Below are positions 21,899-63,092 of a stretch of 64,000 nucleotides of DNA, piece after piece. Source of the DNA: Elusimicrobiota bacterium (lineage in GTDB: Bacteria > Elusimicrobiota > Elusimicrobia > UBA1565 > UBA9628); NCBI GenBank assembly GCA_016194705.1, contig JACQAZ010000010.1, forward strand, positions 166 to 64,165, written 5' to 3'. Numbering within the stretch: position 1 is the first letter of the stretch; each line of letters starts with the position of its first letter. The translations under genes and the position numbers were made by a program. The notes under the pieces were generated by a model, which saw only the letters and a program-made list of their open reading frames with translations, was not told the origin of the DNA and ran no database searches.

Positions 21899-21979
21899 GC
21901 TTCGATTCTAACATAAGACGAGACGGGACTGCAGGCGAGGCGGCGGAGCGCGGCCCCCGGATTTTGTAGACTCTCCGTC

Positions 21980-32107: not shown

Positions 32108-32111
32108 AACG

Positions 32112-33260
32112 ATGGACCCAAAGTCACTCGAGAACATCCCGCAGCCGACCCTGGTCACGGCCCGGGAGCATCTCGAGGAGGTCGTCTCGGACCTCAAACG
32201 CGCCACGCGCCTGGCTCTCGACATCGAATCCAACGGCTTCTACGCCTACCGCGAGAAGGTCTGCCTGCTGCAGATCTCCTCGGCGGCCGAGGATTACATT
32301 GTAGACCCCATCGCGGTCGCGGACCTCTCCTGCCTGGGTCCGTTGATGAAGGATCCCGCCATCGAGAAGATCTTCCACGCTGGGGAATACGACGTCCTGT
32401 GCCTCAAGCGCGACTACGGCTTCACCTTCGCCAATCTCTTCGACACGATGATCGCAAGTCGCCTCTTGGGGATCAAGGAGCTTGGGCTAGCCGCGCTCAT
32501 CGAGCGGCATTTCGGGCTCAAGCTCTCGAAGAAGCTCCAGCGCGCCGACTGGGGACAACGGCCTATGACCCACGCCCAGATCCGCTACGCCCAGCTCGAC
32601 ACCCACTTCTTGATCGCGCTCGCCGACATCCTCAAGGAGCAGCTCAATCTCAAGGGACGCCACGAGGACGCCTCCGAGGCCTTCGTCGAGCTGACCGCCG
32701 TCGAGCCCAACGAGAAGGTCTTCGATCCCGAGGGCTACTGGAGGCTGGCGGCCCGACAGAAGCTCTCGGGCCCCCAGATCGCCTGCCTGCGCGAAATCTA
32801 CCATTTCCGCGAGGAGCAGGCGCAATCCCGCGATCGAGCCCATTTCCGCGTCATGGCCGACGAACTCATGCTGCGCGTGGCCCACGCCATGCCCGCAACG
32901 ATGGGAGAGCTCGGCCAGGTCCGCGGGATGACGCCCTATCTGCTCTCAAAATTCGGACACGCGCTCCTCAAGGCCGTCTCGCGCGGGCGGGAGAGCGAGC
33001 CGCCCTCGCAAGAGCCCCGCCCCCGAGCGCGCCGAGACATGCGCGAGCTTAAAATTTTCGAGGCCTTGCGGCAGTGGCGGAAAGGCCAGGCTTCGACGGA
33101 AGGCGTCGAGCCGGTCGTCATCATGTCGAGCGAAGTCCTTCGCGAGATCGCCCGCTCGGCCGTCGAGACCGAGGCGGACCCGCTGGGGAAGCTGAGTTCG
33201 CTCAAGCGCGGGCGCTACGGCGAGGCCCTGGAGCGGGTCCTTAAGAGCGCGGGGCGCTAA
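32112..33260 (+). CDS. rnd: ribonuclease D (DEDDy 3'-5' exonuclease plus HRDC domain)
   Basis: LALDIESNG and YAQLDTHFL (the Exo III Y-x3-D) are present, with a C-terminal HRDC region. The start is ATG 32112. Confidence 0.85.
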   Translation: MDPKSLENIPQPTLVTAREHLEEVVSDLKRATRLALDIESNGFYAYREKVCLLQISSAAEDYIVDPIAVADLSCLGPLMKDPAIEKIFHAGEYDVLCLKRDYGFTFANLFDTMIASRLLGIKELGLAALIERHFGLKLSKKLQRADWGQRPMTHAQIRYAQLDTHFLIALADILKEQLNLKGRHEDASEAFVELTAVEPNEKVFDPEGYWRLAARQKLSGPQIACLREIYHFREEQAQSRDRAHFRVMADELMLRVAHAMPATMGELGQVRGMTPYLLSKFGHALLKAVSRGRESEPPSQEPRPRARRDMRELKIFEALRQWRKGQASTEGVEPVVIMSSEVLREIARSAVETEADPLGKLSSLKRGRYGEALERVLKSAGR

Positions 33261-34735
33261 AACGGGCCCGCGGACCGGGCCGGGGTGTAGCCGTGCAGCT
33301 CGCGCAGAGTCTTGAAGACCCCGGGGCCCGCGCTGATCTCCACGTCGTCGGCCGTGAACTGGCAGGGATGCTCGTAGCCGCAGGCGTGCGTGACGGCCAT
33401 GAGCTCGTTGCGAAACGACTGGCAGAAGCGCGCGAACCGCAGCGACTGGACCGCGGGCGAAAGGCCCCGTTGAAGCCACTTATTATGCGTCGTGACTCCC
33501 GTGGGGCAGCGGTCCGAGTGGCACTTCTGGGCTTGGATGCAGCCGATGGAAAGCATCGCCTCGCGCGCGATGTTGACCAGGTCGCAGCCGAGGCAAAAGG
33601 CCACGATGGCCCGGTCCGGGAAGCCCATCTTCGCGCTTCCGATCCACACGACCTTCTCCGCCATGCCCTCTTCGAGGAATAACTGGTAGACCCGCGGGAA
33701 GCCCACGCGGAAAGGCAAGGAAACATGATCGGCGAAGGTCAAGGGAGCGGCCCCGGTGCCGCCCTCGCCGCCGTCGATGGTGATCCAATCCGGCCCGCGT
33801 CCGGTCTGCTTCATGGCCGAGGCCAAATCCTTCCAGAAACCAAGTTGTCCCACGGCCGATTTGATCCCGACGGGCAGGCCCGTCTCTTTGGCGATGATCT
33901 CGATGAAGTCGATGAGTCCGCGCACGTCCTTGAAGGCCGAGTGGGAATTGGGGCTGATGCAGTCGACGCCGACGCGTACCCCGCGGATGGCCGCGATCTC
34001 GGGGGTCACTTTCTTGCCGGGCAAGACGCCGCCCTTGCCCGGCTTGGCTCCTTGGGAAAGCTTGAGCTCGATGCCGCGCACGCAAGGCGCTCCCGCCAAA
34101 GTCTCAAGCAGCTTCTCCATCGAGAAGCGGCCCTCTAAGTCGCGGCAGCCGAAATAGCCCGTGCCGATCTGATAGATGAGGTCGGCTCCCATCTTGTGGT
34201 AGGGCGAGATGCCGCCCTCGCCGGTGTTGTGCCAGCAGCCCGCGACCTTGGCCCCCTTGTTGAGGGCCTCAACGGCGGGTGCGGACAACGAACCGAAAGA
34301 CATCGCCGAGATGTTGACGATCGAGGGCGGCCGCCAGGCCTTGGCCCGGCCGTGGACCTCGCCCAGGACCTTGGCGCAGGGCAGCTCGAGCAGCTTGTCG
34401 TGGATCGAGGCCGTGAAGCTGACCTCGCCGTAGGGAAAGACCGCGTGCTTGATGATGGGATAGCCGATGCCCAGGATTTGATCGTCGGTGCCGAAGCCGA
34501 AGTAGTTGTTCTGGCCGCGCGCCGAACGGTAGATCCAGTCGCGCTCCTCGCGGTTGAACGGCAGCTCCTCGTGGTTGCCGGCGACGATGTACTGCCTCAG
34601 CTCCGGCCCGAGCTCGATGAGCAGGTAGCGCAGGTGCCCGACGATGGGGAAATTGCGCAGGACGTTGTCGTCCGAGATGAACAGATCGTGGACGAGAAGC
34701 GCGCCCAAGGCGGCCAAAGACAGCCACAAGAGCAT
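33257..34735 (-). CDS. FMN-binding glutamate synthase-family protein (GltB central-domain homologue)
   Basis: An N-terminal TM helix is followed by a GltS FMN domain (GAKPGKGG...; CHSDRCPTGV...). The stop overlaps the rnd stop convergently (TTAA). Confidence 0.8.
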   Translation of the reverse strand: MLLWLSLAALGALLVHDLFISDDNVLRNFPIVGHLRYLLIELGPELRQYIVAGNHEELPFNREERDWIYRSARGQNNYFGFGTDDQILGIGYPIIKHAVFPYGEVSFTASIHDKLLELPCAKVLGEVHGRAKAWRPPSIVNISAMSFGSLSAPAVEALNKGAKVAGCWHNTGEGGISPYHKMGADLIYQIGTGYFGCRDLEGRFSMEKLLETLAGAPCVRGIELKLSQGAKPGKGGVLPGKKVTPEIAAIRGVRVGVDCISPNSHSAFKDVRGLIDFIEIIAKETGLPVGIKSAVGQLGFWKDLASAMKQTGRGPDWITIDGGEGGTGAAPLTFADHVSLPFRVGFPRVYQLFLEEGMAEKVVWIGSAKMGFPDRAIVAFCLGCDLVNIAREAMLSIGCIQAQKCHSDRCPTGVTTHNKWLQRGLSPAVQSLRFARFCQSFRNELMAVTHACGYEHPCQFTADDVEISAGPGVFKTLRELHGYTPARSAGPF

Positions 34736-34748
34736 GGGCGGGGGTCCT

Positions 34749-35180
34749 TTACCAGGCCGGAGGCTTGCCTGTCATCGGGGGCTTGGTTTTTAGCAGCATG
34801 TGCAAAGTCATGCCCAGCGCCATCGCGTTGACGGGTTTCTCGTAGTAGCCCTTGACGTTGGGCTCCTTGCGCAGCTGCTCCTCGTTATTGCGTTCTCCGC
34901 CGTGGCCGGTCACGATGAGCACCGGGATGCCGGAAGTTGAGCCTGTCTGAAGCATGCGGACGATCTGCACGCCGTGGAATTTCGGCAGCATCATGTCCAG
35001 CATGATAAGGTCGGGCGCGAGGCTCTGCGCCTTGTCGAGCCCCTGCTGCCCGTCGAACGCGGTCGCGCAGCGGAAGCCCTCCCTCTTGAGGATGGTCTCC
35101 ATGAGCTCGCGCGAGCTCTCATCGTCCTCGATGACGAGGATGAGCTTGTCGCCGGCGGGCGCGAGTCCTCCTTCGGCCAT
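34749..35180 (-). CDS. single-domain response regulator (CheY-like receiver)
   Basis: Receiver motifs are present: ILVIEDDESSREL, the phospho-acceptor in LIMLDMMLPKFHG, and PVLIVTGHG. Confidence 0.85.
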   Translation of the reverse strand: MAEGGLAPAGDKLILVIEDDESSRELMETILKREGFRCATAFDGQQGLDKAQSLAPDLIMLDMMLPKFHGVQIVRMLQTGSTSGIPVLIVTGHGGERNNEEQLRKEPNVKGYYEKPVNAMALGMTLHMLLKTKPPMTGKPPAW

Positions 35181-35210
35181 GCCCCATTACACCATTTGGG
35201 GCGGGCTCGT

Positions 35211-36926
35211 TCAAGACGGGTTTTTGAGGCGCACCGAGGCGCGGTAGACCAGCAGCCCGACGGCGGTAAAGCCCGCGCAGATCCACAGCAAAGCAGGTCC
35301 CGTGCCGGCGTAGTCGAGCAGCCACCCCAGACCCAAGGACACCAAAGCCGTACCCGCGATAAACAGGCCGTTGAGAAAGCTCATGACGCCTGGCTGCTCC
35401 TTTTGAGAGACCGCGCGCTGGACGTCGCTGTCGAGGCTCAGCTGGCTGGCCGCCCAGGTCGAGCTGAAGACGAAGATCGCGGGAACGAGCAGCCCGAGAG
35501 CCAGGGCGATCGGCAGGTGGAGGCCGGCCAGTGGGAGCATCCAGCCCGCGAGCAGGCCGAAAGCGCCCCAGCGCACCCAGGCGGAAGGCCCCGGGTAGCG
35601 TTGAGAGCGCTTGAGGATCAAAGAGGCGCCTCCGAGCTCGCCGAAATTCGAGGCCGTCAGCAGGACCGCTGCCAAGGCGCCCGCGCCGAGCAAGGTCTTG
35701 GCGTAGACCGGCAGCAGAAGATTCTCGAAGACGCGGTGGATGATCTGCGGCAGGACCATGGCCGCGGCCAGCCAACGGAAGCGGCGGTCGGTCAGGACTT
35801 TCTTGGCCCCCTTGAAGACATCGCCCCAGGAAGCCGAGTCCTCGTCGACGGTCTGGGCGGAGACCGGCTTGCGCACCTTCCAGAGCAGAAAGGCGGATAT
35901 GAGATAGGCGGGCGGCTGGATGAGCATCGCGTAGAGAGGCCCCACAAGCGCGATCATGGCGCCGCCTAAAGCCGAGCCGATCACGCCCGCGGTCTCGTAG
36001 CGCCGGTGCATGCGCGCGTTATACACGCGCAGGGCCTCCTCGTCGTGACCGAGCAGAAGGGACGGCATCAGGCGTCGACAGGTGTCGGCCACGCCGATGG
36101 CCGCGCCGATGAGGCCGTAGACCGGGAAGACCAGGCTCGCGGTCACCGCGTGCGCCGCGGCCAGTGCCAGCAGGCCGCCGACGAGAACGCCCTGGGCGAG
36201 CACGCTGGCGGCGAGCACCTTGCTCGCGGGGAATCGGCGCAGCAAGGGCGGAGTCAGAGCACCCCCGACGGCCTGTGCGAGTTGATAGACGATGAGCAGG
36301 CCCGCCACCATAGTCGCCCCGCCCAGGCTCTTCATGACGAGAAGGGGGAAGCTCAAGGTCACGACCTCGGCGCCAACCTTGTAGGCGGGCGTGCCCCACA
36401 TCATGAGCTTGACGTCGCGCTGCCGTTCGGGCGAGAGCGGGGCGGACTTACTCGACTGCAGACCAGATGTGTGGGGGGCCTCCTCGGGCAGCGCTGCGGC
36501 GACAGAGGGCACTGCCTCGGGAGCGCCGCCCTGCAAGAGCCTGATCTCTCCCTCGGAGCTCTGAGCTCCGATTTCACCCGAGACGCGGCCCGAGTTTTCG
36601 ATGTCGCCTGCGACCGTTTCGGCGATGGGTTCAAGCCGCGACGCGAGAGCCGCCTGGGGCGTTTCGGCACCGGCGCCCGGCAAGACAGCCTGCGGACCGG
36701 CGAGACCCGTGCTGACTTGGCCGGGCAGGACGGCATCGGCCGCGGCGTCAAGGGAGGGAATATTCGGCAAAACCGGGACGGTGTTCGCGCCGATCTCGGG
36801 GAGCTCGATCTTTGGAACCGGGGAGGTCGGGCGCGCGGCGGACGGCAGACGTCCCTCCGGCAGGCGTTCGAAGGAGGCGGCCAAAGCCGGCTGGGCGGCG
36901 ACGAGGATCTCCAGGAGAATGCGCAT
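35211..36926 (-). CDS. MFS-type transporter with a 174-aa Pro/Ala-rich N-terminal extension of uncertain reality
   Basis: The 12-TM MFS core starts at MMWGTPAYKVG, where an alternative start at ATG 36404 is possible. I see no clear RBS at either candidate start. Confidence 0.65.
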   Translation of the reverse strand: MRILLEILVAAQPALAASFERLPEGRLPSAARPTSPVPKIELPEIGANTVPVLPNIPSLDAAADAVLPGQVSTGLAGPQAVLPGAGAETPQAALASRLEPIAETVAGDIENSGRVSGEIGAQSSEGEIRLLQGGAPEAVPSVAAALPEEAPHTSGLQSSKSAPLSPERQRDVKLMMWGTPAYKVGAEVVTLSFPLLVMKSLGGATMVAGLLIVYQLAQAVGGALTPPLLRRFPASKVLAASVLAQGVLVGGLLALAAAHAVTASLVFPVYGLIGAAIGVADTCRRLMPSLLLGHDEEALRVYNARMHRRYETAGVIGSALGGAMIALVGPLYAMLIQPPAYLISAFLLWKVRKPVSAQTVDEDSASWGDVFKGAKKVLTDRRFRWLAAAMVLPQIIHRVFENLLLPVYAKTLLGAGALAAVLLTASNFGELGGASLILKRSQRYPGPSAWVRWGAFGLLAGWMLPLAGLHLPIALALGLLVPAIFVFSSTWAASQLSLDSDVQRAVSQKEQPGVMSFLNGLFIAGTALVSLGLGWLLDYAGTGPALLWICAGFTAVGLLVYRASVRLKNPS

Positions 36927-37003
36927 ATGACTATTTTAAGGAATAGCCGCCGGAAGCGACTACGGCCCTAGGACCTAGGGCGCCGCGGGCTTAGGGCCCA
37001 GGC

Positions 37004-37477
37004 TTACGGCATCAGCTTGACGATCAGGTCTTTGGCTTGGGGGAATTGCGCGAGGAGGCGGGCCTTGTCGCCGATCTCGAAGTCCGCGAAATCGAAGCCC
37101 GGCGCCACAGTGCAGCCGATCAGGCAGAAATCGCTCTCATCCTCGGGATAGGCCCCGAACCAGGTGCCGGCCGTGATCACATGCTGGAGTTGGCATCCCG
37201 AGCCGACGTCGTGGCCGAGGCGGACGATCTCGACGCGACCATTGGGGGAGATCTTGACGAGGACCAGCGGTCCGCCTAGGTAAAAATGAAACAGCTCGTC
37301 CCACTTGAGGCGGTGCAGGCGCGAGCGTGTCCCTTTAGGCAGAAGGTAATAGATCGCCGTCGAGAAATTGCGGTCGAGCTCCTTGATCTTGCCCGCGGCG
37401 CGATGAGTTTCCTTATAATAGCCGCCTTCGGGGTGAGGCTGCATGCCGTACAGCTTCACCAACTCGTCAGCGGTCAC
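37004..37477 (-). CDS. cupin-superfamily protein (DUF985-like)
   Basis: A 157-aa protein with a single cupin barrel (HRLKWDELFHFYLGGPLVL...). Confidence 0.6.
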   Translation of the reverse strand: MTADELVKLYGMQPHPEGGYYKETHRAAGKIKELDRNFSTAIYYLLPKGTRSRLHRLKWDELFHFYLGGPLVLVKISPNGRVEIVRLGHDVGSGCQLQHVITAGTWFGAYPEDESDFCLIGCTVAPGFDFADFEIGDKARLLAQFPQAKDLIVKLMP

Positions 37478-37478
37478 C

Positions 37479-38198
37479 CTAGTCCTTGAGCCGGAACTGC
37501 ATCGGGACCTTCATGCCCACGGCCCGAGGACCTGAGGAGTCCCGAGCTGGGGAGAAGCGCATCAAGAGCGCGACCTTCTGGGCCGCCGCGCCGAAATCGT
37601 CGCTGTCGGCGTGGACGATTTCCGAGCCGCCGACGATGCCGTCGACGCCGATGTGGATCTTGAGCAGGACGTCGCCCTCGCGGCCGGCGCGGCGCTCGCT
37701 CTCGGGGTAGAACTTGCGCAGCATGGCCAGCAGCTCATCCTTATTGAGGAGCTTGGGCATCTCCAAAAGCGGCGCGCCCCCGTCGCCGGTGCCGGTAGGG
37801 GTGCCGTACGGGGATTTCCCATCGATGCCGCCCGGCAGGGGAGAAATACCGGCGCCGCCGGTGACGCCGCCCGGAGTCGCGGGGCTTTCCGGTTGTTTCT
37901 CGACTTTCTTCGTTTCGGGAGTGCTCGCGGTCCAGTCCTTGGCCGGTTCCACCGGCTTTGTCGCGTCGACCGGCTTGTCAGGCTCCACAGGCAAAGGGAT
38001 CCCCTTGGCGTCCTGGATTTTCGCCTTGGGAGGAGCCAGCCTCGCGGGTCCCGTGCCGAGGAAGGGGCTCGTGATCTCGACTTCGACGGGCGGCCGTACC
38101 CAGAATGAAGGGAGGCCTCGTGCGATCAGGAAGAACAGCGCGTGCAGGACCGCGGAGGCGGCCAGCGCCTGCCGCATGTTCGGGATTCCTTCATTCAC
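37479..38198 (-). CDS. tonB: TonB-family energy transducer
   Basis: An N-terminal TM anchor, a Pro-rich spacer (PLPVEPDKPVDATKPVEP) and a C-terminal TonB domain are present. The start is in an ATGA overlap with exbD. Confidence 0.8.
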   Translation of the reverse strand: MNEGIPNMRQALAASAVLHALFFLIARGLPSFWVRPPVEVEITSPFLGTGPARLAPPKAKIQDAKGIPLPVEPDKPVDATKPVEPAKDWTASTPETKKVEKQPESPATPGGVTGGAGISPLPGGIDGKSPYGTPTGTGDGGAPLLEMPKLLNKDELLAMLRKFYPESERRAGREGDVLLKIHIGVDGIVGGSEIVHADSDDFGAAAQKVALLMRFSPARDSSGPRAVGMKVPMQFRLKD

Positions 38199-38599
38199 TT
38201 TCTCGAGACCTCGAGGCCTATCTTTCTGACACCGGCGCCGCGCACGAGATCCAGGACGCCCACGATGTCCCCGTAGGGGATCGTCTTGTCCGCCGAGAGC
38301 GTCACGTGCAGGTCAGGGTCGGCCCGGGTGCCCGCGGCCAGCAGGCTCTTGAGCTCATCGGAGGACAGCTTCTTGCCCTCGAGAATAAGCTCGCGCTTGG
38401 CGTTGTAGACGATCGACTTGGCCTCGGTCGCCGCGCGGTCGTGGTGGGCGGCCTTGGGAACGTCGACCTTGATCGCTCGTCTTGCGATGATCGGGGCGGT
38501 GGCCATGAAGATGATGAGCACGACAAGGATGATGTCGACGAACGGCGTCACGTTGATCGCGGTGATGGGGCCGTCGTTGTTTCCCGATGCGGTGGCCAT
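38195..38599 (-). CDS. exbD: biopolymer transport protein ExbD/TolR
   Basis: INVTPFVDIILVVLIIFM is the ExbD TM signature. Confidence 0.85.
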   Translation of the reverse strand: MATASGNNDGPITAINVTPFVDIILVVLIIFMATAPIIARRAIKVDVPKAAHHDRAATEAKSIVYNAKRELILEGKKLSSDELKSLLAAGTRADPDLHVTLSADKTIPYGDIVGVLDLVRGAGVRKIGLEVSRK

Positions 38600-38604
38600 G
38601 GGAG

Positions 38605-39228
38605 TCAGCGTTTGGCTCTGCCCTCGCGGATGTGCGCCATCAAGTACCGCCCCAGCGACTCGGTCCCGCCGAGCAGGTCCTTGACGTTTTTGGAGAAGTA
38701 GTTGTACGCGATCACACAGGGGATGGCCACAAATAATCCGACCGCCGTGGCGACTAGCGCCTCGGAGAGGCCCTGCATGACGACCTCGGGGCCGCCGGTG
38801 GTCTGGGCCAGATCATGGAAGGCGCGGATAACGCCCAAGACCGTGCCGAAGAGGCCGATGAAGGGCGCGTTGCTTCCGAGGGTTCCCAGGACGAGCAGCC
38901 ATTTCTCGAGCCCCTCCTTCTCGGCCAGGCTCGCCGCGATCAAGAGGTCCTCGACGCCCTCGGGGCCGTGGTGAGAGCGCGCGAGCGCCGTCTTGAGTAT
39001 CCGCCCCGCCGCTCCCGGATGCCGCTGCACGGTTTTTTCGAGCGACGGGAGATCCTCGCCGAGCCCCGCCATCACGGCTTGGCGCAGGGCGCGAAAGCCC
39101 TGGTCCTCGCGCCTCAGCGCGAAGAAGCGCTCGAATATGATCGCGACCGCCGCCAATGAGCACAACAGCAGGGCGTAGATCACCCAGTCGCCGCCCGTCA
39201 GGGCCAAGGCCCTCAGAACCGAAACCAT
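38605..39228 (-). CDS. exbB: MotA/TolQ/ExbB proton-channel protein
   Basis: GLFGTVLGVIRAF is the ExbB/TolQ signature. A GGAGG RBS is present, and the ATG overlaps the upstream stop (TAATG). Confidence 0.85.
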   Translation of the reverse strand: MVSVLRALALTGGDWVIYALLLCSLAAVAIIFERFFALRREDQGFRALRQAVMAGLGEDLPSLEKTVQRHPGAAGRILKTALARSHHGPEGVEDLLIAASLAEKEGLEKWLLVLGTLGSNAPFIGLFGTVLGVIRAFHDLAQTTGGPEVVMQGLSEALVATAVGLFVAIPCVIAYNYFSKNVKDLLGGTESLGRYLMAHIREGRAKR

Positions 39229-40883
39229 TAGTCCTCCTTGAACTTCTGCAGACGCAGCAGCGACGAGACCAGTTCGGCCTTGACCGACGGATTGGCCTCG
39301 TTCTGCAGCTCAATCATGAGCTTGCGGTAAAGATCGCCGGCGTCCGATGGCCCGCCGAGTTCGCCCAGGTAGTGGGATGCCATCGCCCGCACGAACCAGT
39401 CCTTATGCTGATAGAGCCGCAGCAGGATTTCGCGCCCAAAAATATTCCCCATACGCCAGAGCCCAGCCGCGGCGTAGACCTGCATGGCCAGCGAGGAGTC
39501 GGCGCGCGCCGCCCCGTCGACGATGAACTGGTTCCCCGTTTCCCCCTGCACGAGCAGCGATTCGAGAGCCCCGAAGCGCACCGTGATGTTGGCGTTGTTG
39601 AGCATGCCCTGGAAGAGAGGCGTGTAGCGCAGCTCTTTGGTGTAGGCCAAGGCGACCATCGCCGCCGCCTGAATCTGCACGTTGCTGCCCAGGCGGGCCG
39701 CGTCCTCGAGAGCCTGGTCGATGCCGTAGTCCTTCGAGCCGGCCAAGCCGTCGGTGAGCAGGAAGCCCAGCTGGGTGTAGCGCGTCTTGAGGTTGTAGCC
39801 GTCGAGCGTGCTGATCTTGTTAAGATTGCCGACAGAGGCGTCGAGCTGCGCTTGCGGGTCGGGCCTGGCGTCCTGACGATCGCGCAGCAGGCGCAGCAAG
39901 GTCGACCCGATCGAAGGGTCGAGGATGGCGTCGGCGGCGAGCTTGACGCGCGGAGCCGAGATGACCAGAGCCTCGAGTTGGAAGACCGGCTCCGAGTCGG
40001 GGATCGCCGACTTCGAGGCCGGGGCCGGCTCCTCCTTGACCGGTGCCCGAGCCGCCTTGTTGGCCGCCCGCACCGCGGCCGCTTTTTGCGGGAAGAGCTT
40101 TAACGCCGCGATGCAGTCCTCCGCGAGCGTAAAATCGTTCTGCTGCTCGCGGCCCAGGCGCGAGACCAACTCATCGTAGTCGGCCGCCGAGCCGTAGTCG
40201 CCCAGATACCGGGCGGCCATCGCGCGCACGAGCCAGGAGGCGTTGTCGAGGTAGCCGCGCAGCGCGGGCAGGCCGCGCGCGTCGCCGGCGCCAGCCAGCG
40301 CGCGGGCGGCGAACACGCGGAGGATCGGTTCGGGCTCGTTGCGCGAGTCCTGGCCCATCGCGAACCACTGGAGCGACTTGTCGGGATGCCCCCAAACGGT
40401 GAGGGCCTCGAGCGCTCCGAAGCGCACGGCCGGGTCGAGGTTGATGAGGGCCTCGCGAAAAACGTCGAAGTCGGCGAGGTCGTGGGCCCGGGCCAGCGCG
40501 ATGAGGGCGGACGCGCGGGTCTCCCCATCGCGCTCCCAGCGCGCCAGCTCGATGAGCTTCTTGCGAAAATCGGGATCGTCATTGCGGGACAAGGCCTCGG
40601 CCAATGGGACACCGATGCTCAGGTACCGGTTCCGCAGAGTGAAGCCGATCGGGGAGCCCAGGGCCAATATGTCGGCGGCGGGAGTTCCGGAGATCGCAAT
40701 CATGTCGACTTTCTCGTGGTCCTTGTTCTGGAGCAAGTCGACCAGGGCGTTGTTGATCGCGGCGTCGGTCTTGACGGGCCCCCCGGGCACGACCGGCCCC
40801 GAGGTCTCCTTGACGGTGATCTCGCCGCAGGCGCAGAACAGGGCCGCGGCCAGAATGAGGGCGCTCTTGCTCATGCCGTGCAT
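39228..40883 (-). CDS. HEAT/PBS-lyase repeat lipoprotein (551 aa)
   Basis: A lipobox (LFCACG) is present. Repeated units include DPAVRFGALEAL, SWLVRAMAARYLG, ITVRFGALESL and DWFVRAMASHYLG. Confidence 0.75.
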   Translation of the reverse strand: MHGMSKSALILAAALFCACGEITVKETSGPVVPGGPVKTDAAINNALVDLLQNKDHEKVDMIAISGTPAADILALGSPIGFTLRNRYLSIGVPLAEALSRNDDPDFRKKLIELARWERDGETRASALIALARAHDLADFDVFREALINLDPAVRFGALEALTVWGHPDKSLQWFAMGQDSRNEPEPILRVFAARALAGAGDARGLPALRGYLDNASWLVRAMAARYLGDYGSAADYDELVSRLGREQQNDFTLAEDCIAALKLFPQKAAAVRAANKAARAPVKEEPAPASKSAIPDSEPVFQLEALVISAPRVKLAADAILDPSIGSTLLRLLRDRQDARPDPQAQLDASVGNLNKISTLDGYNLKTRYTQLGFLLTDGLAGSKDYGIDQALEDAARLGSNVQIQAAAMVALAYTKELRYTPLFQGMLNNANITVRFGALESLLVQGETGNQFIVDGAARADSSLAMQVYAAAGLWRMGNIFGREILLRLYQHKDWFVRAMASHYLGELGGPSDAGDLYRKLMIELQNEANPSVKAELVSSLLRLQKFKED

Positions 40884-40904
40884 AGTATCAAATCGCGCTG
40901 CGCC

Positions 40905-42380
40905 TCATTCCCGCACGATCTCGACCGAAAAGACCTTTAACCGGGCTGCGGAGTCCTTCCAGCACTGCCGCGAAAGATGCGCCTTCTGCGAGCACAGTTC
41001 GCCCAGGAATGACTCCTTGTCCTTGAGCTGCTCCCAGACCTGCGGGAGGAAGACCCCGGAGCTTCCCCCTTCCTCGACGATGACCCCGTCGCCCTTGCGG
41101 ATCTCGGAGGCCGACTTGACCTCCTTGGACTGGGAGAGCCGCGAGACCTCGATGCGCAGGCCGGGAAGCTCGGCGGCCTGCACGGGCTTGAAGCGCGAGT
41201 CGCTGACAGCACTTGCCACCGCGTTGTGGGCCACGGACTCGACGAGGCTCTCCTGGGCCTGCAGCGAGCCGATGCAGCCGCGCAGCTCGCCAGAGGCCTT
41301 CTCGAGGGTCACGAAAACCGCGGCGGGCAGGTTCAGCCTGGGGTCCTTCGACAGCGCGACGGCGGGCATCTTGCCCGAGGCGAGGTAGCCTTCGATGCTG
41401 CGGCGCGCCAGGACCAAGAGCTCTTTTTTCTCGGAACCGTCGAGCGCGGCCGGGACCGCGGCGGAGACTCCCTTCAAAAAGACGACCGCGGCGTATCCTA
41501 CGACATGATGATAATCCCGCTCGGAGACGACGTCGCCCGAGTTGATGTGCGAGAGAACGCGCGCCTGCGTCGCGCCCAGCTCGCGCGCCGCGGTCATGAC
41601 GGCGGTCACGGCCCCCTCGCCGCAGTAGGTCACCGCAAGGCTCTCGAGGCCGCGGTTCATGAGCAGCCGGTTGGTCAGCCAGAAATAGGCGGGGTCCAAG
41701 GTCTTCAAGGCCTCGAGCGTCGTCCGATCGACGATGTCGGAGAGAGGCCCGCTGGGGTAGTGAGATTGATCGGAGGAGGCCACGAGAAGCACGCGCTTGC
41801 CCTTGATGGCGGAGGCCAGCGCGCGGCCGATGATGCGCGCGGACTCGAGGTCCTGCGTGTTCATGACCATGCCGACGATTTTGACGGATCCCAGACGGTA
41901 CCGCAGGAATGGGACCTGGACCTCGATCGAATGCTCCTTGTCGTGAGCCCGAGCGTCGAGCTTGATCAAGCTCGTGGTCTTGACCAATGCCCCGGCCAAG
42001 GCCGCGTCGTACTCCAGCGAGCCCTCTGGGGTCGCGTAAGCCCCAGGGTAAATCGCCGCGCCCTCGAGCTCCTTGTAATGCCCGGTTCCGAGCACGACCA
42101 CGGTATCCCAGTGCCCGGGAGCGAGCAGCTTGTAGGCGCGCGCCGCGGTCGCGCCCGAGTACTCAAGCCCGGCGTGAGGGACGAGCACGGCGACGATCTC
42201 GCCCGGGACTTTCTCGTTTGGCGCGGCTTTCAAAAGGCTCTCTACGAGCGCCTCGAGAGCCTTGGCGGACAGGGGATAGAAGCGGCCGGCCACCGACGGC
42301 AGTCTAACCGCCGCGGCCGCCGCCGCGGCGGTCAAAAAAGACAGGAAAATCCAGCCCGATCTCTTTAATAATCCGTTCAC
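40905..42380 (-). CDS. fusion of a Memo-like domain (AmmeMemoRadiSam system protein B family) with a C-terminal AMMECR1 domain (protein A family), preceded by a predicted signal peptide
   Basis: The GTG start at 42380 gives a signal-peptide-like N-terminus (MNGLLKRSGWIFLSFLTAAAAAAA). The conserved Memo start VRLPSVAGRFYP...LVPHAGLEYSG follows. The C-terminal AMMECR1 region carries RGCIGSL and VFLPQVWE. Confidence 0.8.
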   Translation of the reverse strand: MNGLLKRSGWIFLSFLTAAAAAAAVRLPSVAGRFYPLSAKALEALVESLLKAAPNEKVPGEIVAVLVPHAGLEYSGATAARAYKLLAPGHWDTVVVLGTGHYKELEGAAIYPGAYATPEGSLEYDAALAGALVKTTSLIKLDARAHDKEHSIEVQVPFLRYRLGSVKIVGMVMNTQDLESARIIGRALASAIKGKRVLLVASSDQSHYPSGPLSDIVDRTTLEALKTLDPAYFWLTNRLLMNRGLESLAVTYCGEGAVTAVMTAARELGATQARVLSHINSGDVVSERDYHHVVGYAAVVFLKGVSAAVPAALDGSEKKELLVLARRSIEGYLASGKMPAVALSKDPRLNLPAAVFVTLEKASGELRGCIGSLQAQESLVESVAHNAVASAVSDSRFKPVQAAELPGLRIEVSRLSQSKEVKSASEIRKGDGVIVEEGGSSGVFLPQVWEQLKDKESFLGELCSQKAHLSRQCWKDSAARLKVFSVEIVRE

Positions 42381-42483
42381 AGGTTCGAAATCAATTCCGA
42401 ACAGGTTTCCGCTAAACTAACCCCAGAGGCGCACAACAGTACGGCATCTAAGTTCGACAACTGAAGACAACGACCACCAGGAG

Positions 42484-42524
42484 CCCGCCCCTGCATGACT
42501 CTCCGCATGCAGGGGCGGTTTTTT
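42484..42524 (+). terminator. plus-strand intrinsic-terminator-like hairpin with a U6 tract in a minus-strand gene region. It may mark the 3' end of a small RNA on the plus strand.
   Basis: CCCGCCCCTGCATG-actctccg-CATGCAGGGGCGG is followed by TTTTTT. Genes on both sides are on the minus strand, and on that strand the T-tract is on the wrong side of the hairpin. Confidence 0.45.
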
Positions 42525-43077
42525 ACTCCGGTTTTCCCACCTTCTCGAAATTGCGCATGATCGTCTCGAGCCAGCGCTGATCCATCTCGTCGAAAGCCGA
42601 CTTGGCTTCGCTGTCGGCGTCGAAGACCGCCCAGACCTTGCCGTCCTTGTCGTAGACCGGGACCGCGATCTCGCTTTGGTTCTTGGGGTCGCACTCGATG
42701 TGCTGGTCTCCCAACGCCTTCACGTCCGGCACGATGATCGTCTTGCCTTCCTTGAGCGCCTTGCCGCAGACTCCGCTCAGCGGCAGCGGCGAGCAGGCCG
42801 GCTTCTCGCGATGGGCTCCGAGGATGAGCTCCTGGCCGCCGGGCGGGAGAACATAGAAGCCGCACCAAGAGTACGGGCTTTGCGCGAAGGTGTCCCACAA
42901 TTCGTCGACGATCTCGCGCATCATGCGCTCGCTTTTGAGCTCGCGGCGGCGCCATCTCTTCTCGAGATTGGCGTGCGCCTTGTCGTAGCGCGCCCGCGAG
43001 GGACGCGACCTCATCGCGTTGGCGTCCTTGATCTCCTGCATCTCGTTGGTCAGCTCACGTTCCTTTTCATTGGCCAT
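42523..43077 (-). CDS. GAF-domain protein of the free-methionine-(R)-sulfoxide reductase (fRMsr/YebR) type, with a basic N-terminal extension
   Basis: WCGFYVL, ACSPLPLSGVCGKA and SEIAVPV match the fRMsr catalytic Cys pattern. The start is uncertain because several Met codons are available. Confidence 0.7.
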   Translation of the reverse strand: MANEKERELTNEMQEIKDANAMRSRPSRARYDKAHANLEKRWRRRELKSERMMREIVDELWDTFAQSPYSWCGFYVLPPGGQELILGAHREKPACSPLPLSGVCGKALKEGKTIIVPDVKALGDQHIECDPKNQSEIAVPVYDKDGKVWAVFDADSEAKSAFDEMDQRWLETIMRNFEKVGKPE

Positions 43078-44110
43078 GTGTTCTCTCCAATACCACGAGC
43101 TGCCCGCAGGCGCCCTGGATGTCCCGGCCGAGGTTCTGGCGCACGGTCGCGTGGACGCCCGCGTCCAGGAGGACTTTCTGGAAGCTCCTGGCGTTCTCCT
43201 CGGACGAGGCCCGGTGCGGCGTGTCGGTCTCGTTGAAAATGATCAGATTGACGTGGATGAGCTCGCGCGGCCCCAGGCCCTTGGCGTAGGCGACGAGCCG
43301 GGCTGCGTCCTCCGGACGATCGTTCTCCTCCCGGAGCAGCACGTATTCCAAGAAGACCTTGCGCGGGGTCTCGCAGAGGTAGTTCTTGATCGCTTTGGCC
43401 AGCGCCGCCAGGGGATAAGCCTTGTTGACGGGCACAAGCCGCGTGCGCAGGGCGTCGTCGGCCGCGTGAAGGGAGAGGGCGAGGTTGACCTGCGGAAAAT
43501 CCCGGCCGAAGCGCTCTATCTGCGGGGCGATGCCCGACGTCGAGACCGAGATGTGCCGCGCGCCGATGCCGAATTGCTTCTGGTCCATGAGCGCCCGCAG
43601 GCTCTGGGCGAGCGTGTCGTAGACCGCGAAGGGCTCGCCCATGCCCATGTAGACGACGTTGTCGAGGCGCCCCTCCAGGGACTCGCGCTTCATGTACTGC
43701 CGCCAAAACAGGACCTGATCGGTGACTTCCTCGACGCTCAGGTTGCGCTGCAGGCCCATGAGGCCGGTCGCGCAGAAGGTGCAGCCCACCGCGCAGCCGA
43801 CCTGACAGGAGATGCAGGTCGTCCAGCGCACGGGGCTGGGGCGCAGCAGGACCGTCTCGACGATCTTGCCGTCGCCGAGCTCCAAGAGGGCCTTATGGGC
43901 GCGGCCGTCGGAGGAGACCTCGACGCGGCGCTCTTTGAGGCTCAGGATCGGGGCTTGGCTCTTGAGGCCGTCCCGCAGTTCGCGGGGAAGGACCGCGACG
44001 TCGTCGTAAGACGCGGCGGCCTCGGAGAAGACCGCGCGGCGCACCTGATCGAGGCGGTAGCGCGGCGCATTGAGCGCCGACAACGCGGCCTCGACTTTGT
44101 CCAGGTCCAC
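43067..44110 (-). CDS. rlmN: 23S rRNA (adenine2503-C2)-methyltransferase RlmN (radical SAM)
   Basis: CISCQVGCAVGCTFCATG is the RlmN/Cfr radical-SAM cluster motif. The start is GTG. Confidence 0.9.
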   Translation of the reverse strand: MDLDKVEAALSALNAPRYRLDQVRRAVFSEAAASYDDVAVLPRELRDGLKSQAPILSLKERRVEVSSDGRAHKALLELGDGKIVETVLLRPSPVRWTTCISCQVGCAVGCTFCATGLMGLQRNLSVEEVTDQVLFWRQYMKRESLEGRLDNVVYMGMGEPFAVYDTLAQSLRALMDQKQFGIGARHISVSTSGIAPQIERFGRDFPQVNLALSLHAADDALRTRLVPVNKAYPLAALAKAIKNYLCETPRKVFLEYVLLREENDRPEDAARLVAYAKGLGPRELIHVNLIIFNETDTPHRASSEENARSFQKVLLDAGVHATVRQNLGRDIQGACGQLVVLERTHGQ

Positions 44111-44743
44111 CTAGTATGTCACCTCGATGACCTCGTGCGATTCCAGGAGCTTCTTGAGGACCGCATGCTGCTCCTTGCGCGCGGCCGAGGTCAGCCATTC
44201 GCTGTAGTAGAGGTTGTTCTTCTTCATCGTCTTGTGACGGATGATGTGCACGCGGGCGTCGCGGAAGATGGCGGTCACCTGGGCGAGACTCTTGTCGTCG
44301 AACTTGGAGGTGATGCGGAAGGTGTGGCGCTGCTGCCAGTCGTCGATGAGGATGTCGAGCGGCGTGAAGGCCAACTGGACGACGAGCACGACGATGGTCA
44401 CCAAGGCCGCGAGGTTGAAGTGCCCGTAGCCGACCGCCATCCCGATGGCGGCGACGATCCAGATCGTTGCCGCGGTGGTCAAGCCCGTGATGCGCTCGCC
44501 GTCGCGCATGATGGCACCGGCGCCGAGGAAGCCGATGCCGGAGACGAGCTGCGCCGAGATGCGCGCCGGGTCGTTCGGGAAGGCCTGGGAGATCATCGTA
44601 AACAATGTGGCTCCCAGGCAGATCACGATGTTCGTGCGAAGTCCCGCGGCCTTGTCGCTGAGCTCGCGCTCGAGTCCGATGACGGCGCCCAGGACCAAGG
44701 ATACGGCGATCGTCACGATATCACGATTGACGTGTTCGAGCAT
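44111..44743 (-). CDS. mgtC: MgtC/SapB-family membrane protein
   Basis: The start is ATG 44743 with a GGAGG RBS. The N-terminal TM region has an MgtC pattern (LVLGAVIGLERE), followed by a C-terminal ACT-like domain. Confidence 0.8.
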   Translation of the reverse strand: MLEHVNRDIVTIAVSLVLGAVIGLERELSDKAAGLRTNIVICLGATLFTMISQAFPNDPARISAQLVSGIGFLGAGAIMRDGERITGLTTAATIWIVAAIGMAVGYGHFNLAALVTIVVLVVQLAFTPLDILIDDWQQRHTFRITSKFDDKSLAQVTAIFRDARVHIIRHKTMKKNNLYYSEWLTSAARKEQHAVLKKLLESHEVIEVTY

Positions 44744-44756
44744 CACACAACCTCCT

Positions 44757-46193
44757 TCACGACTGTCTCGCCGAGGCCTGCGCGGAGCCTCGGGCAAGAA
44801 TCCTTCTATAGGCCTGCGCGGCCGCCTCGCGCCCGGAACGGATGCAGTCGGGCAGTCCAACGCCTTCGTAAGAGCAGCCCGAGAGATACAGCCCGGGATG
44901 ACCCTGCAGGCAGGACGCGATGCGCTTGAGGCGCAAGGCGTGGCCGACATTGTACTGGGGGTTGGCCTTCTCCCAGCGCTGGGACCGGCTGAATTTGGGA
45001 TGAGTCTCGCCGAGCCGGAGAATCTCGGCGAGCTCCTTGCGCGCGGTGCGAGAGAGGCCCGCCTCGTCGGCCGCGACGGTCTCCTCGCGCCCGGCGCCTC
45101 CCATGAAGCAGCGCACCATGACCTGGCCCTGCGCCACGCGCTCCGGGAATTTCGTCGAGGTGTAGGTCGCGGCGGTGACCGCTCGGCCCTCCGCGCGCGG
45201 CACGATGAAGCCGAAGCCGTCCAAAGGGTCGGGGAAGCCGGCCCTCTCATAGACCAAGGAGACCGTCGCCGTAGTGACGAAGGGGATCTCGTTCAGCACG
45301 CAGGAGAGTTCGAAATCGAGGTCGGAGGCGACGGCGGCCAGCGCGTTGGCGGGCAAAGCGGAGATGACCGCGTCGGCCGAAAAAACCGCGTCCTTGGTCG
45401 CGACCTGCCACTCGGAGCCGCGGCGCTTGAGGCTCAGCACGTTGGCTCCGGTGCGCACCGTGCCCCCCGGCAGCTGATGCGCGAGCGCCTCGACGAGGCG
45501 CGAGAGTCCGCCCCTGAGCGTCATGAACATCGTGAGTTCCGAGGAAGGCTTCGGACGCTGTGCGGCGGCCCTCATGCCCTTGAATATGCCGCCGGAGAGC
45601 TCGAGTTCCTTGAGCTGAGGGAAGGTGCTCTGTAGGCTCATTTGCTCGGGGTCGCCCGCGTAGATCCCGGCGAGCATGGGGGCCGCGATCTTCTCGAGCG
45701 CCTCGCGCCCAAGCCGGCGGCGCACGAAGGAGCCCAACGACTCGTCGAGCTCTTCTCTGGCGGCCGGGATGAACGGCTCGAGCGCGAGGCGGAGCTTTGC
45801 CTTCCAGGAGAGCAGCCTCGTCGTCAGGAAGGGCAGCACGCGCGACGGAAGCAAGGTCATCCCTTCCGGCAAGGGCTCGAGTTTGCCGTGAGAGAGGACA
45901 TAGATCGTTTTTTGGCTCTCGTTGGTCTTCACGAGCTCCCCCGAAAGCCCAAGTTCGCGCACCAGGGCGAGCGCGTCGGGCTTGGCGGTGATAAAGGAGT
46001 CGGGCCCGAGCTCGAAGACGACTCCATCCTTGGTCTCGGTCATGACCTTGCCGCCGACGCGGTTTGACGCTTCGAGGACGACGATCTCGAGCTTGCGCCG
46101 GTCCCGAGCGGCGCGTTTATGGAGCTCGTAGGCGGCGGCAAGGCCGGTGATGCCGGCCCCCAAGATGACGACGCGCGGCGATGACGAGCTCAA
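44757..46193 (-). CDS. hemY: protoporphyrinogen/coproporphyrinogen oxidase (HemY/CgoX type, FAD-dependent)
   Basis: VVILGAGITGLAAAY is the FAD-binding motif, and the overall HemY pattern is present. The proposed TTG start at 46193 sits in a TTGA overlap with the hemE stop. The ORF-track extension overlaps hemE and is rejected. Confidence 0.85.
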   Translation of the reverse strand: MSSSSPRVVILGAGITGLAAAYELHKRAARDRRKLEIVVLEASNRVGGKVMTETKDGVVFELGPDSFITAKPDALALVRELGLSGELVKTNESQKTIYVLSHGKLEPLPEGMTLLPSRVLPFLTTRLLSWKAKLRLALEPFIPAAREELDESLGSFVRRRLGREALEKIAAPMLAGIYAGDPEQMSLQSTFPQLKELELSGGIFKGMRAAAQRPKPSSELTMFMTLRGGLSRLVEALAHQLPGGTVRTGANVLSLKRRGSEWQVATKDAVFSADAVISALPANALAAVASDLDFELSCVLNEIPFVTTATVSLVYERAGFPDPLDGFGFIVPRAEGRAVTAATYTSTKFPERVAQGQVMVRCFMGGAGREETVAADEAGLSRTARKELAEILRLGETHPKFSRSQRWEKANPQYNVGHALRLKRIASCLQGHPGLYLSGCSYEGVGLPDCIRSGREAAAQAYRRILARGSAQASARQS

Positions 46194-47221
46194 TTGAGGC
46201 TCCACGCGTGTACCCAGTCGACGACGGCCTTCACGTTTTCGACCGGGGTCTGCGGCAGGATGCCGTGGCCCAGGTTGAAGATGAAGCCCTTGCGGCCGCA
46301 CGCGCGCGCCAGTATGTCCCTCACGGCCGACTTGAGCACGGGCTTGGCCGCGAAGAGCACCGTCGGATCGAGGTTGCCTTGGATGGCGCGCGCGCCGATC
46401 TTTCCCCAAGCCGCGTCGAGGTCAAGGCGCCAGTCGACGCCGATCACGTCGCCGCCGGCCGAGGCGAAGTCCTCGAGGAAGCCGGCGGTGCCGGTCCCGA
46501 AATGGATGACGGGAACGCCGGAGGATTTGAGGGCCGAGAGCACGAAACGCGAATGCGGCAGGACGCACTTGCGGTATTGTTCCGGCGAGAGGCAGCCGAC
46601 CCACGAGTCGAAGAGCTGCACGGCCTGCGCGCCGGCCTCGACCTGGGCCTTCAGGTAGGCCGCGGTGATCCGGCGCACCTTGCCCATCAACTGGTCCCAC
46701 GCTTTGGGCTGTTCGAGCATGAAGGCCTTGGTCTTTAGGAAGTGGTCCGAAGGTCCGCCCTCGATGAGGTAGCTCGCCAAAGTGAACGGCGCGCCGGCAA
46801 ACCCGATCAAGGGGATCGGCCCGAGTTCGCGCCGCGCCAAGGCGATCGCCCGGAGCACGAAGGAGAGCCCCTCGCGCGAGTCGAAGTCCTTGAGGCGCCG
46901 AACATCCGCGGCCGAGCGCACGGGGTTGTCGATGACGGGACCCGGCGCGAAGCGCAGCCGCGCGCCCATCGGCTCGATGGGCAGCAGGATGTCGGCGAAG
47001 ATGATGGCCGCATCTATCGGCATGGCGCGAATGGGCTGCAGAGTGACCTCGCAGGCCAACTCGGGCGTCTTTGCCAGCTGAAGGATCGAATACTTCTTGC
47101 GCAGGTCGCGGTATTCCTTCATATAGCGTCCGGCCTGGCGCATGAACCACACGGGGGTCCGGTCGACCTTCTGGCGAAAGCACGCGCGGACAAAGCGCGG
47201 GGCTCCCTGTAAGCTGGGCAT
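46190..47221 (-). CDS. hemE: uroporphyrinogen decarboxylase
   Basis: PVWFMRQAGRYM is the URO-D N-terminal signature. Confidence 0.95.
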   Translation of the reverse strand: MPSLQGAPRFVRACFRQKVDRTPVWFMRQAGRYMKEYRDLRKKYSILQLAKTPELACEVTLQPIRAMPIDAAIIFADILLPIEPMGARLRFAPGPVIDNPVRSAADVRRLKDFDSREGLSFVLRAIALARRELGPIPLIGFAGAPFTLASYLIEGGPSDHFLKTKAFMLEQPKAWDQLMGKVRRITAAYLKAQVEAGAQAVQLFDSWVGCLSPEQYRKCVLPHSRFVLSALKSSGVPVIHFGTGTAGFLEDFASAGGDVIGVDWRLDLDAAWGKIGARAIQGNLDPTVLFAAKPVLKSAVRDILARACGRKGFIFNLGHGILPQTPVENVKAVVDWVHAWSLN

Positions 47222-62516: not shown

Positions 62517-62592
62517 GTTGCTTTAAAGCAACAGTGAGCCGAATAGATCGCTTAATTTTCTTCGTTTAGGCCCCGCGTTGCTTTAAAGCAAC
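62517..62592. repeat. two identical 16-nt AT-rich perfect palindromes, GTTGCTTTAAAGCAAC, 60 bp apart
   Basis: The copies sit at 62517-62532 and 62577-62592, between convergent ygiQ and the 62583 gene. Copy 2 overlaps the minus-gene stop codon. Neither copy is followed by a T-tract. Confidence 0.7.
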
Positions 62593-63092
62593 GGACCAGG
62601 CCGGGACTCTGGGCAGGCCGTCTTGGGATCGGGAACGAACATCGCCTTGCCTTGCGGCACGCAGACGGCCGTCTTGCCGGCCGGAGCGGGTCCCAGCATG
62701 ACGTCCTCGCAGAGAAAGTCCGAGCAGTACGCCAGGGACTCTCTGGCGTCCCCGTTCTCGGTCCACTTCACCCAGAACAACCCCCTTTCCTTGGCAAGAA
62801 CGCCGGCCCTCGGGTCCGTCTTGCGCGGATGGCCGTTCCACGGGCGCGTCTCGAAGGTCTTCTTGGCGAGCGAGAATCCCTCGTAGGGCCGCCATGCGCC
62901 CGCCGTTTCGTCGTAGCGGCAGGCCGAACGCACGGCGATCGCCGCCCTCTTCACGTTCAGCGCCATCGCCCAACTTTCGTTGTAGCTGATCACGCAGGCC
63001 TTGCTCGTCTTGTCCCAGCCGAAGTTGAAAAGCGGGCTTCTTCTCTCGGCCGCGGAGGCCGAGAGCGCAAGCAGGAGCAGCGCGGCCTTCAC
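62583..63092 (-). CDS. secreted hypothetical protein (169 aa, 6 Cys)
   Basis: A signal peptide is present (MKAALLLLALSASAA). I recognise no domain. Confidence 0.55.
   Translation of the reverse strand: MKAALLLLALSASAAERRSPLFNFGWDKTSKACVISYNESWAMALNVKRAAIAVRSACRYDETAGAWRPYEGFSLAKKTFETRPWNGHPRKTDPRAGVLAKERGLFWVKWTENGDARESLAYCSDFLCEDVMLGPAPAGKTAVCVPQGKAMFVPDPKTACPESRPGPLL

Follow-up and report, generated by a model that had tools for sequence, protein, structure and literature searches.

Divergent intergenic genes for trans-encoded small RNAs (sRNAs) are known in Escherichia coli beside oxyR (OxyS), gcvA (GcvB) and sgrR (SgrS). C/U-rich loops in hairpins 7, 13 and 14 of Staphylococcus aureus RNAIII, and in RsaE/RoxS, pair with Shine-Dalgarno (SD) sequences. 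Our literature search found no characterised sRNA from Elusimicrobia. Here we describe a candidate from a 64,000-nt stretch of an Elusimicrobiota genome assembly (contig JACQAZ010000010.1), called the window below; unless a relative is named, coordinates are window positions. The element in question is a hairpin followed by six T residues, oriented for the plus strand and located in a short spacer between two minus-strand genes, one for a Memo-AMMECR1 fusion protein and the other for a GAF-domain protein. We consider it probable (at roughly 0.6) that hairpin and T tract form the Rho-independent terminator of a conserved, independently transcribed, non-coding plus-strand RNA of ~100 nt, a reading drawn from comparison of the window with syntenic loci.

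The hairpin and its conservation

The terminator-like element comprises the following features.

42485-42518, plus strand: terminator stem-loop, with arms CCGCCCCTGCATG (42485-42497) and CATGCAGGGGCGG (42506-42518) enclosing the loop ACTCTCCG (42498-42505)
42498-42505, plus strand: the same loop as RNA, ACUCUCCG, whose CUCUCC core is kept in 9 of 11 relatives
42519-42524, plus strand: T6 tract, the U tail of the terminator, overlapping the TAA stop codon of the minus-strand GAF gene

Reading of 42200-42700, together with a terminator scan, gave a perfect stem with 10 G-C pairs and an 8-nt loop; C42484 is unpaired, so the stem is 13 bp. It was the top-ranked site in the scan of 40000-45000 (13 pairs, 10 G-C, loop 8, tail TTTTTTACTC). 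The isolated hairpin folds at -27.7 kcal/mol on the plus strand, and its 11 homologues at -23.9 to -28.5 kcal/mol. A first-pass annotation, made from the letters of the window, had described a 13-bp hairpin and T6 in a 142-nt gap between the Memo-AMMECR1 start and the GAF stop, and both hairpin and gap (42381-42522) were borne out. It had also found no plus-strand gene upstream for more than 9 kb, and indeed the RNase D-like open reading frame (ORF) at 32046-33260 ends 9.2 kb away, while all Pfam-supported genes of 33257-47221 lie on the minus strand. Its judgement that the hairpin would make a poor GAF terminator likewise stands: on the minus strand A6 precedes the stem and GCTCCTGG comes after, with no U tract (2 T in 8).

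Chance does not account for the orphan hairpin with its T6. Of the four perfect hairpins in the window that reach 11 bp or more, this one alone has a T tail beyond the stem; 60 first-order Markov simulations of the window gave a mean of 0.77 stems of at least 11 bp and 0 with a T tail. The stem-arm sequence is found once in the 64 kb.

For comparison we picked 11 syntenic loci through Memo-AMMECR1 protein matches, at 56-71% identity to the window protein. The closest GTDB representative is L001 (71%), an Elusimicrobia metagenome-assembled genome from palsa soil. Three pairs of independent assemblies carry identical sequences (L015 and L016, L018 and L019, L026 and L027), and assembly artefacts are therefore excluded. 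Every relative that has the spacer has the hairpin at the same place, with perfect or near-perfect pairing and with a different stem sequence, as in the divergent stems CCGGCCCTGCATG (L001), CCGGCCTCGCGCT (L022), CCACACCCGGCA (L025) and CCGCACCCTCGA (L017).

The first-pass annotation had proposed a check for hairpin covariation in related genomes. We counted covariation on a covariance-model alignment of 11 distinct sequences over a 12-bp helix: 96.9% of cells hold standard pairs, and 10 of the 12 pairs have changed on both sides. None of 500 shuffles reached the observed covariation values, and sliding the partner by 1-3 columns as a control lowered pairing to 35-46%. The stem covaries and is therefore a selected RNA structure.

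These data bear on the idea that the element acts in DNA or is mobile, being a palindromic protein-binding site, a cruciform, or a repeat of the repetitive extragenic palindrome (REP) or miniature inverted-repeat transposable element (MITE) type. The palindrome in the window is perfect, and in L026 a MITE-like insertion adjoins the hairpin, as this idea would have it. However, the element is single-copy in the 64-kb window and, across ~230 kb of related loci, has one copy at each syntenic site, at a fixed syntenic position despite Memo-AMMECR1 identities of 56-71%. Its stem sequence changes freely with pairing kept, whereas a protein operator would conserve sequence, and the G·T / A·C strand asymmetry described below is unexpected for a DNA duplex site. 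We therefore regard a DNA-level or mobile element as very improbable.

Strand, candidate promoter and body of the predicted RNA

Wobble pairs, a T-rich tail and consensus folding are three independent features that point to the plus strand. Five internal non-Watson-Crick pairs (two in L015, one each in L018 and L028, and one in the stem extension of L017) are all G·U when read on the plus strand, the gene strand having C·A in their place. One stem position is CG in four sequences, UA in three and UG in three, wobble intermediates that are possible only in a plus-strand RNA. Overall the plus strand has 117 Watson-Crick pairs, 6 G·U pairs and 4 mismatches, versus 117, 1 and 9 on the gene strand; the L023 "mismatches" in this tally come from a one-column misalignment by the model, its stem being perfect when the homologues are read one by one. 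By RNAalifold the consensus folds at -17 to -21 kcal/mol on the plus strand versus -7.3 on the gene strand. The 8 nt 3′ of the stem contain 4-6 T on the plus strand in all 11 homologues (mean 5.1, where composition leads one to expect ~1.4), and 0-4 on the gene strand (mostly 2, mean 2.1), where the tail is typically GCTCCTGG.

A minus-strand explanation would make the hairpin a terminator lacking a U tract, or a 3′-end stabiliser, of the amine oxidase-MgtC-rlmN-GAF transcript, or a bidirectional terminator mainly serving that transcript. In most relatives the hairpin begins 4-15 nt past the GAF stop codon, and a unit boundary is expected here, since RlmN and GAF are functionally unrelated to Memo-AMMECR1. 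The window hairpin is equally stable on the minus strand (-28.1 kcal/mol), and L017, the sole relative that looks two-sided, is T-rich on both sides. Yet on the minus strand all wobbles become C·A mismatches, so that the L015 stem folds at -17.6 kcal/mol versus -24.7 on the plus strand; the tail resembles GCTCCTGG, 10 of 11 homologues having 0-3 T in these 8 nt (L017 alone has CTTTTCGC); and the conserved A run upstream of the stem is left without a role.

Linkage tells against a minus-strand role as well. The distance from stem to Memo-AMMECR1 start is 99-112 nt in all homologues, while the distance to GAF has been disrupted three times: by a ~250-nt insertion between GAF stop and hairpin in L026, where hairpin, A/T run and downstream blocks are kept; by ~400 nt at the same place in L028; and in L023 by a 3′ extension of the GAF ORF, whose frame reads through the hairpin. 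Hairpin, A/T run and blocks are kept in the latter two also. The hairpin thus stays with the Memo-AMMECR1 block despite insertions, and is therefore not simply the terminator of GAF. The first-pass annotation had named a bidirectional terminator used only by GAF as one outcome that would overturn its proposal, and the linkage kept in L026 and L028 argues against it. We consider a minus-strand element improbable. Should minus-strand transcription run through the U-less hairpin, the predicted plus-strand RNA would in addition be perfectly antisense to this intercistronic stretch.

The L026 insertion (~1690-1930 of that locus, also L027 1-90) has terminal inverted repeats of ~25 nt, ACCGCAAAGGACGCGAAGGACG ... 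CGTCCTTCGCGTCCTCTGCGGT, and looks like a MITE.

Upstream of the hairpin, the promoter search that the first-pass annotation had suggested for the plus strand of 42381-42483 turned up a conserved -10-like hexamer. Two blocks need to be considered.

42413-42418, plus strand: candidate -10 hexamer TAAACT (family consensus TAnACT), with T1, A2 and T6 invariant in 12 of 12 sequences
42387-42391, minus strand: conserved ATTTC block (GAAAT on the plus strand), exactly 6 nt before the Memo-AMMECR1 start codon

The hexamer was read from alignment A1 (12 sequences in plus orientation), in which columns T36, A37 and T41 are invariant; A occupies position 4 in 10 of the 12 sequences, and C position 5 in 11. 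It lies 33-38 nt upstream of the Memo-AMMECR1 start codon, facing away from that gene, and 66 nt upstream of the stem on the plus strand, with constant hexamer-hairpin spacing in the homologues. The 7th base downstream is always a purine (A42425 in the window), and a TGn extension precedes the hexamer in only 5 of 12 sequences. Other promoter-like sites in the window carry the same hexamer types, TACACT, TATACT and TAGACT; they include TTGACA-17-TACACT (twice), CTGGCA-17-TATACT, and TGTAGACT followed after 7 nt by the ATG at 21980.

The ATTTC block could be a minus-strand translation-initiation region, or the upstream AT-rich part of the plus-strand promoter. Its 6-nt spacing to ATG fits the leaderless genes of this genome, and it is an unconvincing -10 element because hexamer position 6 is an invariant C. 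A sigma-54 promoter on the gene strand, in the CTGG...TTG region 3′ of the hairpin, was rejected: by eye, GG-N10-GC spacing is unmet in any relative.

Shifted by 1 nt and read in the gene-strand direction, the hexamer block becomes nAGTnT with invariant A-11 and T-7. Because these two bases are reciprocally paired on the two strands, the TAnACT core may also fire towards Memo-AMMECR1. Bacterial promoters can be bidirectional through such -10 symmetry, with start sites 18 bp apart, and are commonly so (PMC10268837). The starts predicted here, ~42407 (minus) and ~42425 (plus), are 18 bp apart, and position 42407 is T on the plus strand, fitting the -18T rule. The plus-strand reading is the better hexamer, with T1 in 12 of 12 sequences versus 5 of 12 on the gene strand.

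The transcript that would result, and its motifs, are as follows.

42425-42524, plus strand: predicted small RNA of ~100 nt, its start placed at the purine 7 nt past the -10 and its end at the T tract
42434-42439, plus strand: CAACAG motif (CAACnG; C, A, A, C and G being invariant columns of alignments A1 and A2)
42455-42463, plus strand: CGACAACTG motif (consensus CGACAACAG, CGACAAC(A/T)G), the best-conserved block of the RNA body
42477-42484, plus strand: CCAGGAGC block, immediately 5′ of the stem; CCAGGAGCC or CCACGAGCC in 9 of 12 sequences

The 5′ part is CA-rich and ~60 nt long, and RNAalifold, run on both strands, found the terminator as the sole conserved structure. A looser third copy, ACGACAAC, stands in relatives between the CAACnG and CGACAACAG motifs, and a further GACAAC is present at 42466-42471 of the window. 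The double-repeat pattern occurs once in the window, where 0.09 is expected by chance. The CUCUCC loop core and the CCAGGAGC block are kept while the stem sequence drifts. Identity of the spacer between L001 and the window is 0.82, versus 0.48 at four-fold degenerate sites of the adjacent gene; in the other relatives it is 0.47-0.70 versus 0.35-0.50 at four-fold sites that are saturated. Judged by this excess, the whole spacer is under purifying selection.

No conserved ORF was found in the spacer among the relatives, and no plus-strand ATG precedes the hairpin. Two ORFs were discarded, a minus-strand one spanning the spacer (42377-42955) and a 21-codon plus-strand one starting in the stem; in both, frame and start codon are not conserved in relatives.

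Searches for known families gave little. Against Rfam release 15 at the gathering threshold, the sole match in the whole window was a transfer RNA (tRNA) at 153-225, and at E values up to 10 there was no relevant match over 42100-42800. ARAGORN found no tRNA or transfer-messenger RNA at the locus, and therefore GGTTCGAA near 42382 is not a tRNA remnant. Covariance model R1 matched each syntenic locus exactly once (57-97 bits) and had no further match in ~230 kb of related DNA. In ~700 kb of viral loci the CAACAG...CGACAACAG pattern gave chance matches only, and no covariance-model score rose above 26.7 bits. The element is absent from Memo-AMMECR1 loci that are more distant, namely L029 (53% identity, with other neighbours) and L002-L013 (~35%). 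A weak covariance-model match (E 0.023) falls on a pair of palindromes elsewhere in the window because CAACAG/CTGTTG lies inside them. These are two copies, 60 nt apart, of the perfect 16-bp palindrome GTTGCTTTAAAGCAAC (62517-62532 and 62577-62592), between the plus-strand ORFs 60537-62483 and 62623-62886; they look like operators.

Conservation of the spacer could also be explained without a function for the RNA. TAnACT may be first of all a bidirectional promoter of Memo-AMMECR1, the terminator only stopping a functionless divergent RNA before it reaches GAF and rlmN, and the CAAC/GTTG repeats being transcription-factor sites. Three GTTGTCG-like direct repeats, spaced by 13 and 11 bp, do lie upstream of Memo-AMMECR1, and the sites of response-regulator-type activators are often direct repeats upstream of a gene. 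This account also draws on the gene-strand nAGTnT reading with its invariant A-11 and T-7, and on the failure to recognise any other minus-strand Memo-AMMECR1 promoter in the spacer or any trans target locally. It is in keeping with the frequency of bidirectional promoters with 18-bp start spacing in bacteria (PMC10268837). Set against it are the hexamer preference for the plus strand (T1 in all 12 sequences versus 5), the constant hexamer-hairpin spacing, and the CUCUCC loop and CCAGGAGC conserved while the stem drifts, which would be needless for a pure stop signal. Moreover, it still needs a plus-strand transcript and terminator, and differs only on the function of the RNA. We hold this explanation possible, if doubtful.

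Several observations weigh against our preferred reading of an independent RNA. The wobble asymmetry amounts to five events, ~0.03 one-sided under a symmetric null. Tails are weaker in 4 of 11 homologues (4 T in 8), those of L025 and L026 being offset by 3-4 nt as well. The entire spacer, including hairpin, repeats and hexamer, is missing from L021, whether through a true deletion or through faulty assembly. At 16-18 nt upstream of the hexamer there is no TTGACA-like -35, the AT-rich ATCAAT (42390-42395) being found there, and a strict promoter scan of 40000-45000 gave nothing. No conserved complementary motif of the CTGTTG type was found near the GAF, rlmN, Memo-AMMECR1, HEAT and exbB starts, and the repeats, of the GTTGTCG type in gene-strand reading, could serve an activator of Memo-AMMECR1 as DNA sites rather than act as RNA motifs.

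An RNAduplex target scan of the window returned only the trivial antisense site and GC-driven noise. The loop and the GAF ribosome-binding site showed no covariation across relatives. A pseudoknot between CCAGGAG and the CUCUCC loop was ruled out by geometry, as a 1-2 nt linker would have to cross the 13-bp helix.

If our preferred reading holds, RNA polymerase would start ~7 nt past TAAACT (42413-42418), heading towards GAF and divergently from Memo-AMMECR1, and the same hexamer core may also fire towards Memo-AMMECR1, from ~42407 on the minus strand against ~42425 on the plus. The transcript would consist of ~60 nt of unstructured, CA-rich sequence with the CAACnG and CGACAACAG motifs and their looser copy, then CCAGGAGC and the 13-bp terminator with its CUCUCC loop. 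Release at hairpin and U6 would spare GAF and rlmN antisense transcription. Such an RNA agrees with the proposal of the first-pass annotation, a small plus-strand RNA ending at the hairpin and starting in or near the Memo-AMMECR1 promoter region, which is supported by the covariation, the plus-specific wobbles and tail, and TAnACT. The single-stranded repeats, and a loop complementary to ribosome-binding sites of the GGAGAG type, suggest with low certainty an sRNA that acts by base pairing or by titrating a protein. Structure, covariation, strand bias, the conserved hexamer and selection on the spacer are observed; the making of the RNA, its start and release, and regulation by base pairing through the CA-rich repeats, the SD-complementary loop or both are inferred.

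Flanking genes and other features of the window

The genes around the spacer are the following.

40905-42380, minus strand: Memo-AMMECR1 fusion (Pfam Memo and AMMECR1; NCBIfam AmmeMemoRadiSam B and A), with a GTG start where relatives have ATG
42523-43077, minus strand: GAF-domain gene, whose stop codon shares bases with the T tract
43067-44110, minus strand: RlmN, the radical SAM gene adjoining GAF (TIGR00048, 296 bits versus a cutoff of 290)

The relatives keep a one-strand order of amine oxidase, (MgtC), radical SAM, GAF, a spacer of ~140-160 nt, Memo-AMMECR1, HEAT, ExbB, ExbD and TonB. The upstream radical SAM gene had earlier been labelled the AmmeMemoRadiSam partner, a label that does not survive the TIGR00048 match at 296 bits; since this neighbour is RlmN, the Memo-AMMECR1 fusion is without a cognate radical SAM gene beside it. 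At 1815-1830 of L021, the GAF stop codon directly abuts the Memo-AMMECR1 signal-peptide coding sequence.

The HEAT-repeat gene 3′ of Memo-AMMECR1 is preceded by a conserved extended -10, TTTGnTAnnAT (window ~40882-40892, minus strand), with an ATG 7-9 nt on (mostly 7-8). The site is at the same place in L001, L015, L018, L020-L022, L024-L026 and L028, most of these relatives having the ATG. This suggests that the HEAT gene has its own leaderless promoter and that its true start in the window is the ATG at 40874, not 40883; HEAT-ExbB-ExbD-TonB is then probably a unit separate from Memo-AMMECR1. Other genes of the window are also apparently leaderless, with a -10, 6-7 nt and then ATG (19417-19463, 21960-21982 and 36927-36945). 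One divergent pair has TCGACG-17-TAAAAT-CCTCCT-ATG at 19464 (plus) and TTGGCG-17-TATAAT-CGGTGC-ATG at 19410 (minus); further examples are TGTAGACT-CTCCGTC-ATG at 21980 (plus) and TAAAAT-AGTCAT-ATG at 36926 (minus).

Some other hairpins of the window deserve mention. A perfect 17-bp palindrome, AAAGAAAGGACCCTCCG/CGGAGGGTCCTTTCTTT, at 2523-2560, with A and T runs inside the stem, sits between the convergent ORFs 1824-2507 (plus) and 2579-3385 (minus); it looks like a genuine two-sided terminator, unlike the one-sided element at 42485-42518. Within the Memo-AMMECR1 coding region, an 11-bp perfect GC-only hairpin (GCCGCGGCCGC...) at 42307-42332 falls where the signal peptide has its run of alanines, and probably arose from repeated GCN codons. 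TTTTTT (window 229-235) comes directly after the tRNA-Trp gene (153-228), and because this run adjoins the tRNA 3′ end, acceptor stem and T run scored like a terminator in the scan.

Comparison with known systems

With no Rfam family matched, the element is a candidate for a new sRNA family of a well-known kind, and as a predicted family it challenges no current concept. Should the RNA be made, it would be the first sRNA family supported by comparative genomics in an uncultivated and poorly studied phylum, with a searchable anatomy of promoter, repeats and terminator. It would also show that an orphan terminator against the local gene direction can reliably flag unannotated RNA genes in metagenome-assembled genomes, and its coupling to Memo-AMMECR1 would give modest access to how this widespread protein pair, whose function is unknown, is regulated. 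A bolder version, which we offer tentatively and think rather unlikely, would make this the first defined regulatory RNA family of Elusimicrobia: a clade-specific RNA of ~100 nt whose CGACAAC(A)G motifs and SD-complementary loop titrate an RNA-binding protein or repress several mRNAs, under common control with Memo-AMMECR1 from a shared bidirectional promoter.

Dispersed repeats of the REP/MITE type differ from the 42485-42518 element, which is unique in the 64-kb window and, over 230 kb, has one copy at each syntenic locus. Bidirectional terminators between convergent genes likewise combine a hairpin with A and T runs on opposite sides; here, however, the flanking genes are co-directional and a U tract is found on one strand only, the other having GCTCCTGG, with L017 alone two-sided. 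Among intrinsic terminators the element is unusual in having no annotated plus-strand gene upstream and in conserving its loop and the 8 nt before the stem, but it shares their GC-rich stem (13 bp), loop (8 nt), six U directly 3′ on the plus strand, and conserved U-rich tail.

Promoters that are bidirectional through -10 symmetry usually give a divergent RNA that is an unconserved antisense by-product (Warman et al., 2021, as summarised in PMC10268837). TAnACT resembles them in its invariant A and T, reciprocal on both strands, in predicted starts 18 bp apart, and in the T at -18 (42407). Unlike those by-products, the divergent RNA predicted here would have a conserved body and end in a covarying terminator of its own. 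Loops of the RNAIII/RsaE type are matched in that CUCUCC is complementary to GGAGAG-type ribosome-binding sites, for example UGGAGAGAACACAUG of the adjacent GAF gene; there is no homology, loop-SD complementarity is generic, and loop and GAF site do not covary across relatives. The OxyS, GcvB and SgrS type of sRNA has no sequence or Rfam relationship to the predicted RNA, and the gene beside it encodes Memo-AMMECR1, an enzyme-like periplasmic protein, instead of a transcription factor. The anatomy is nevertheless alike: a predicted length of ~100 nt, a candidate promoter facing away from the neighbouring gene, an unstructured conserved stretch as possible seed, a terminator with U tail, and conserved synteny.

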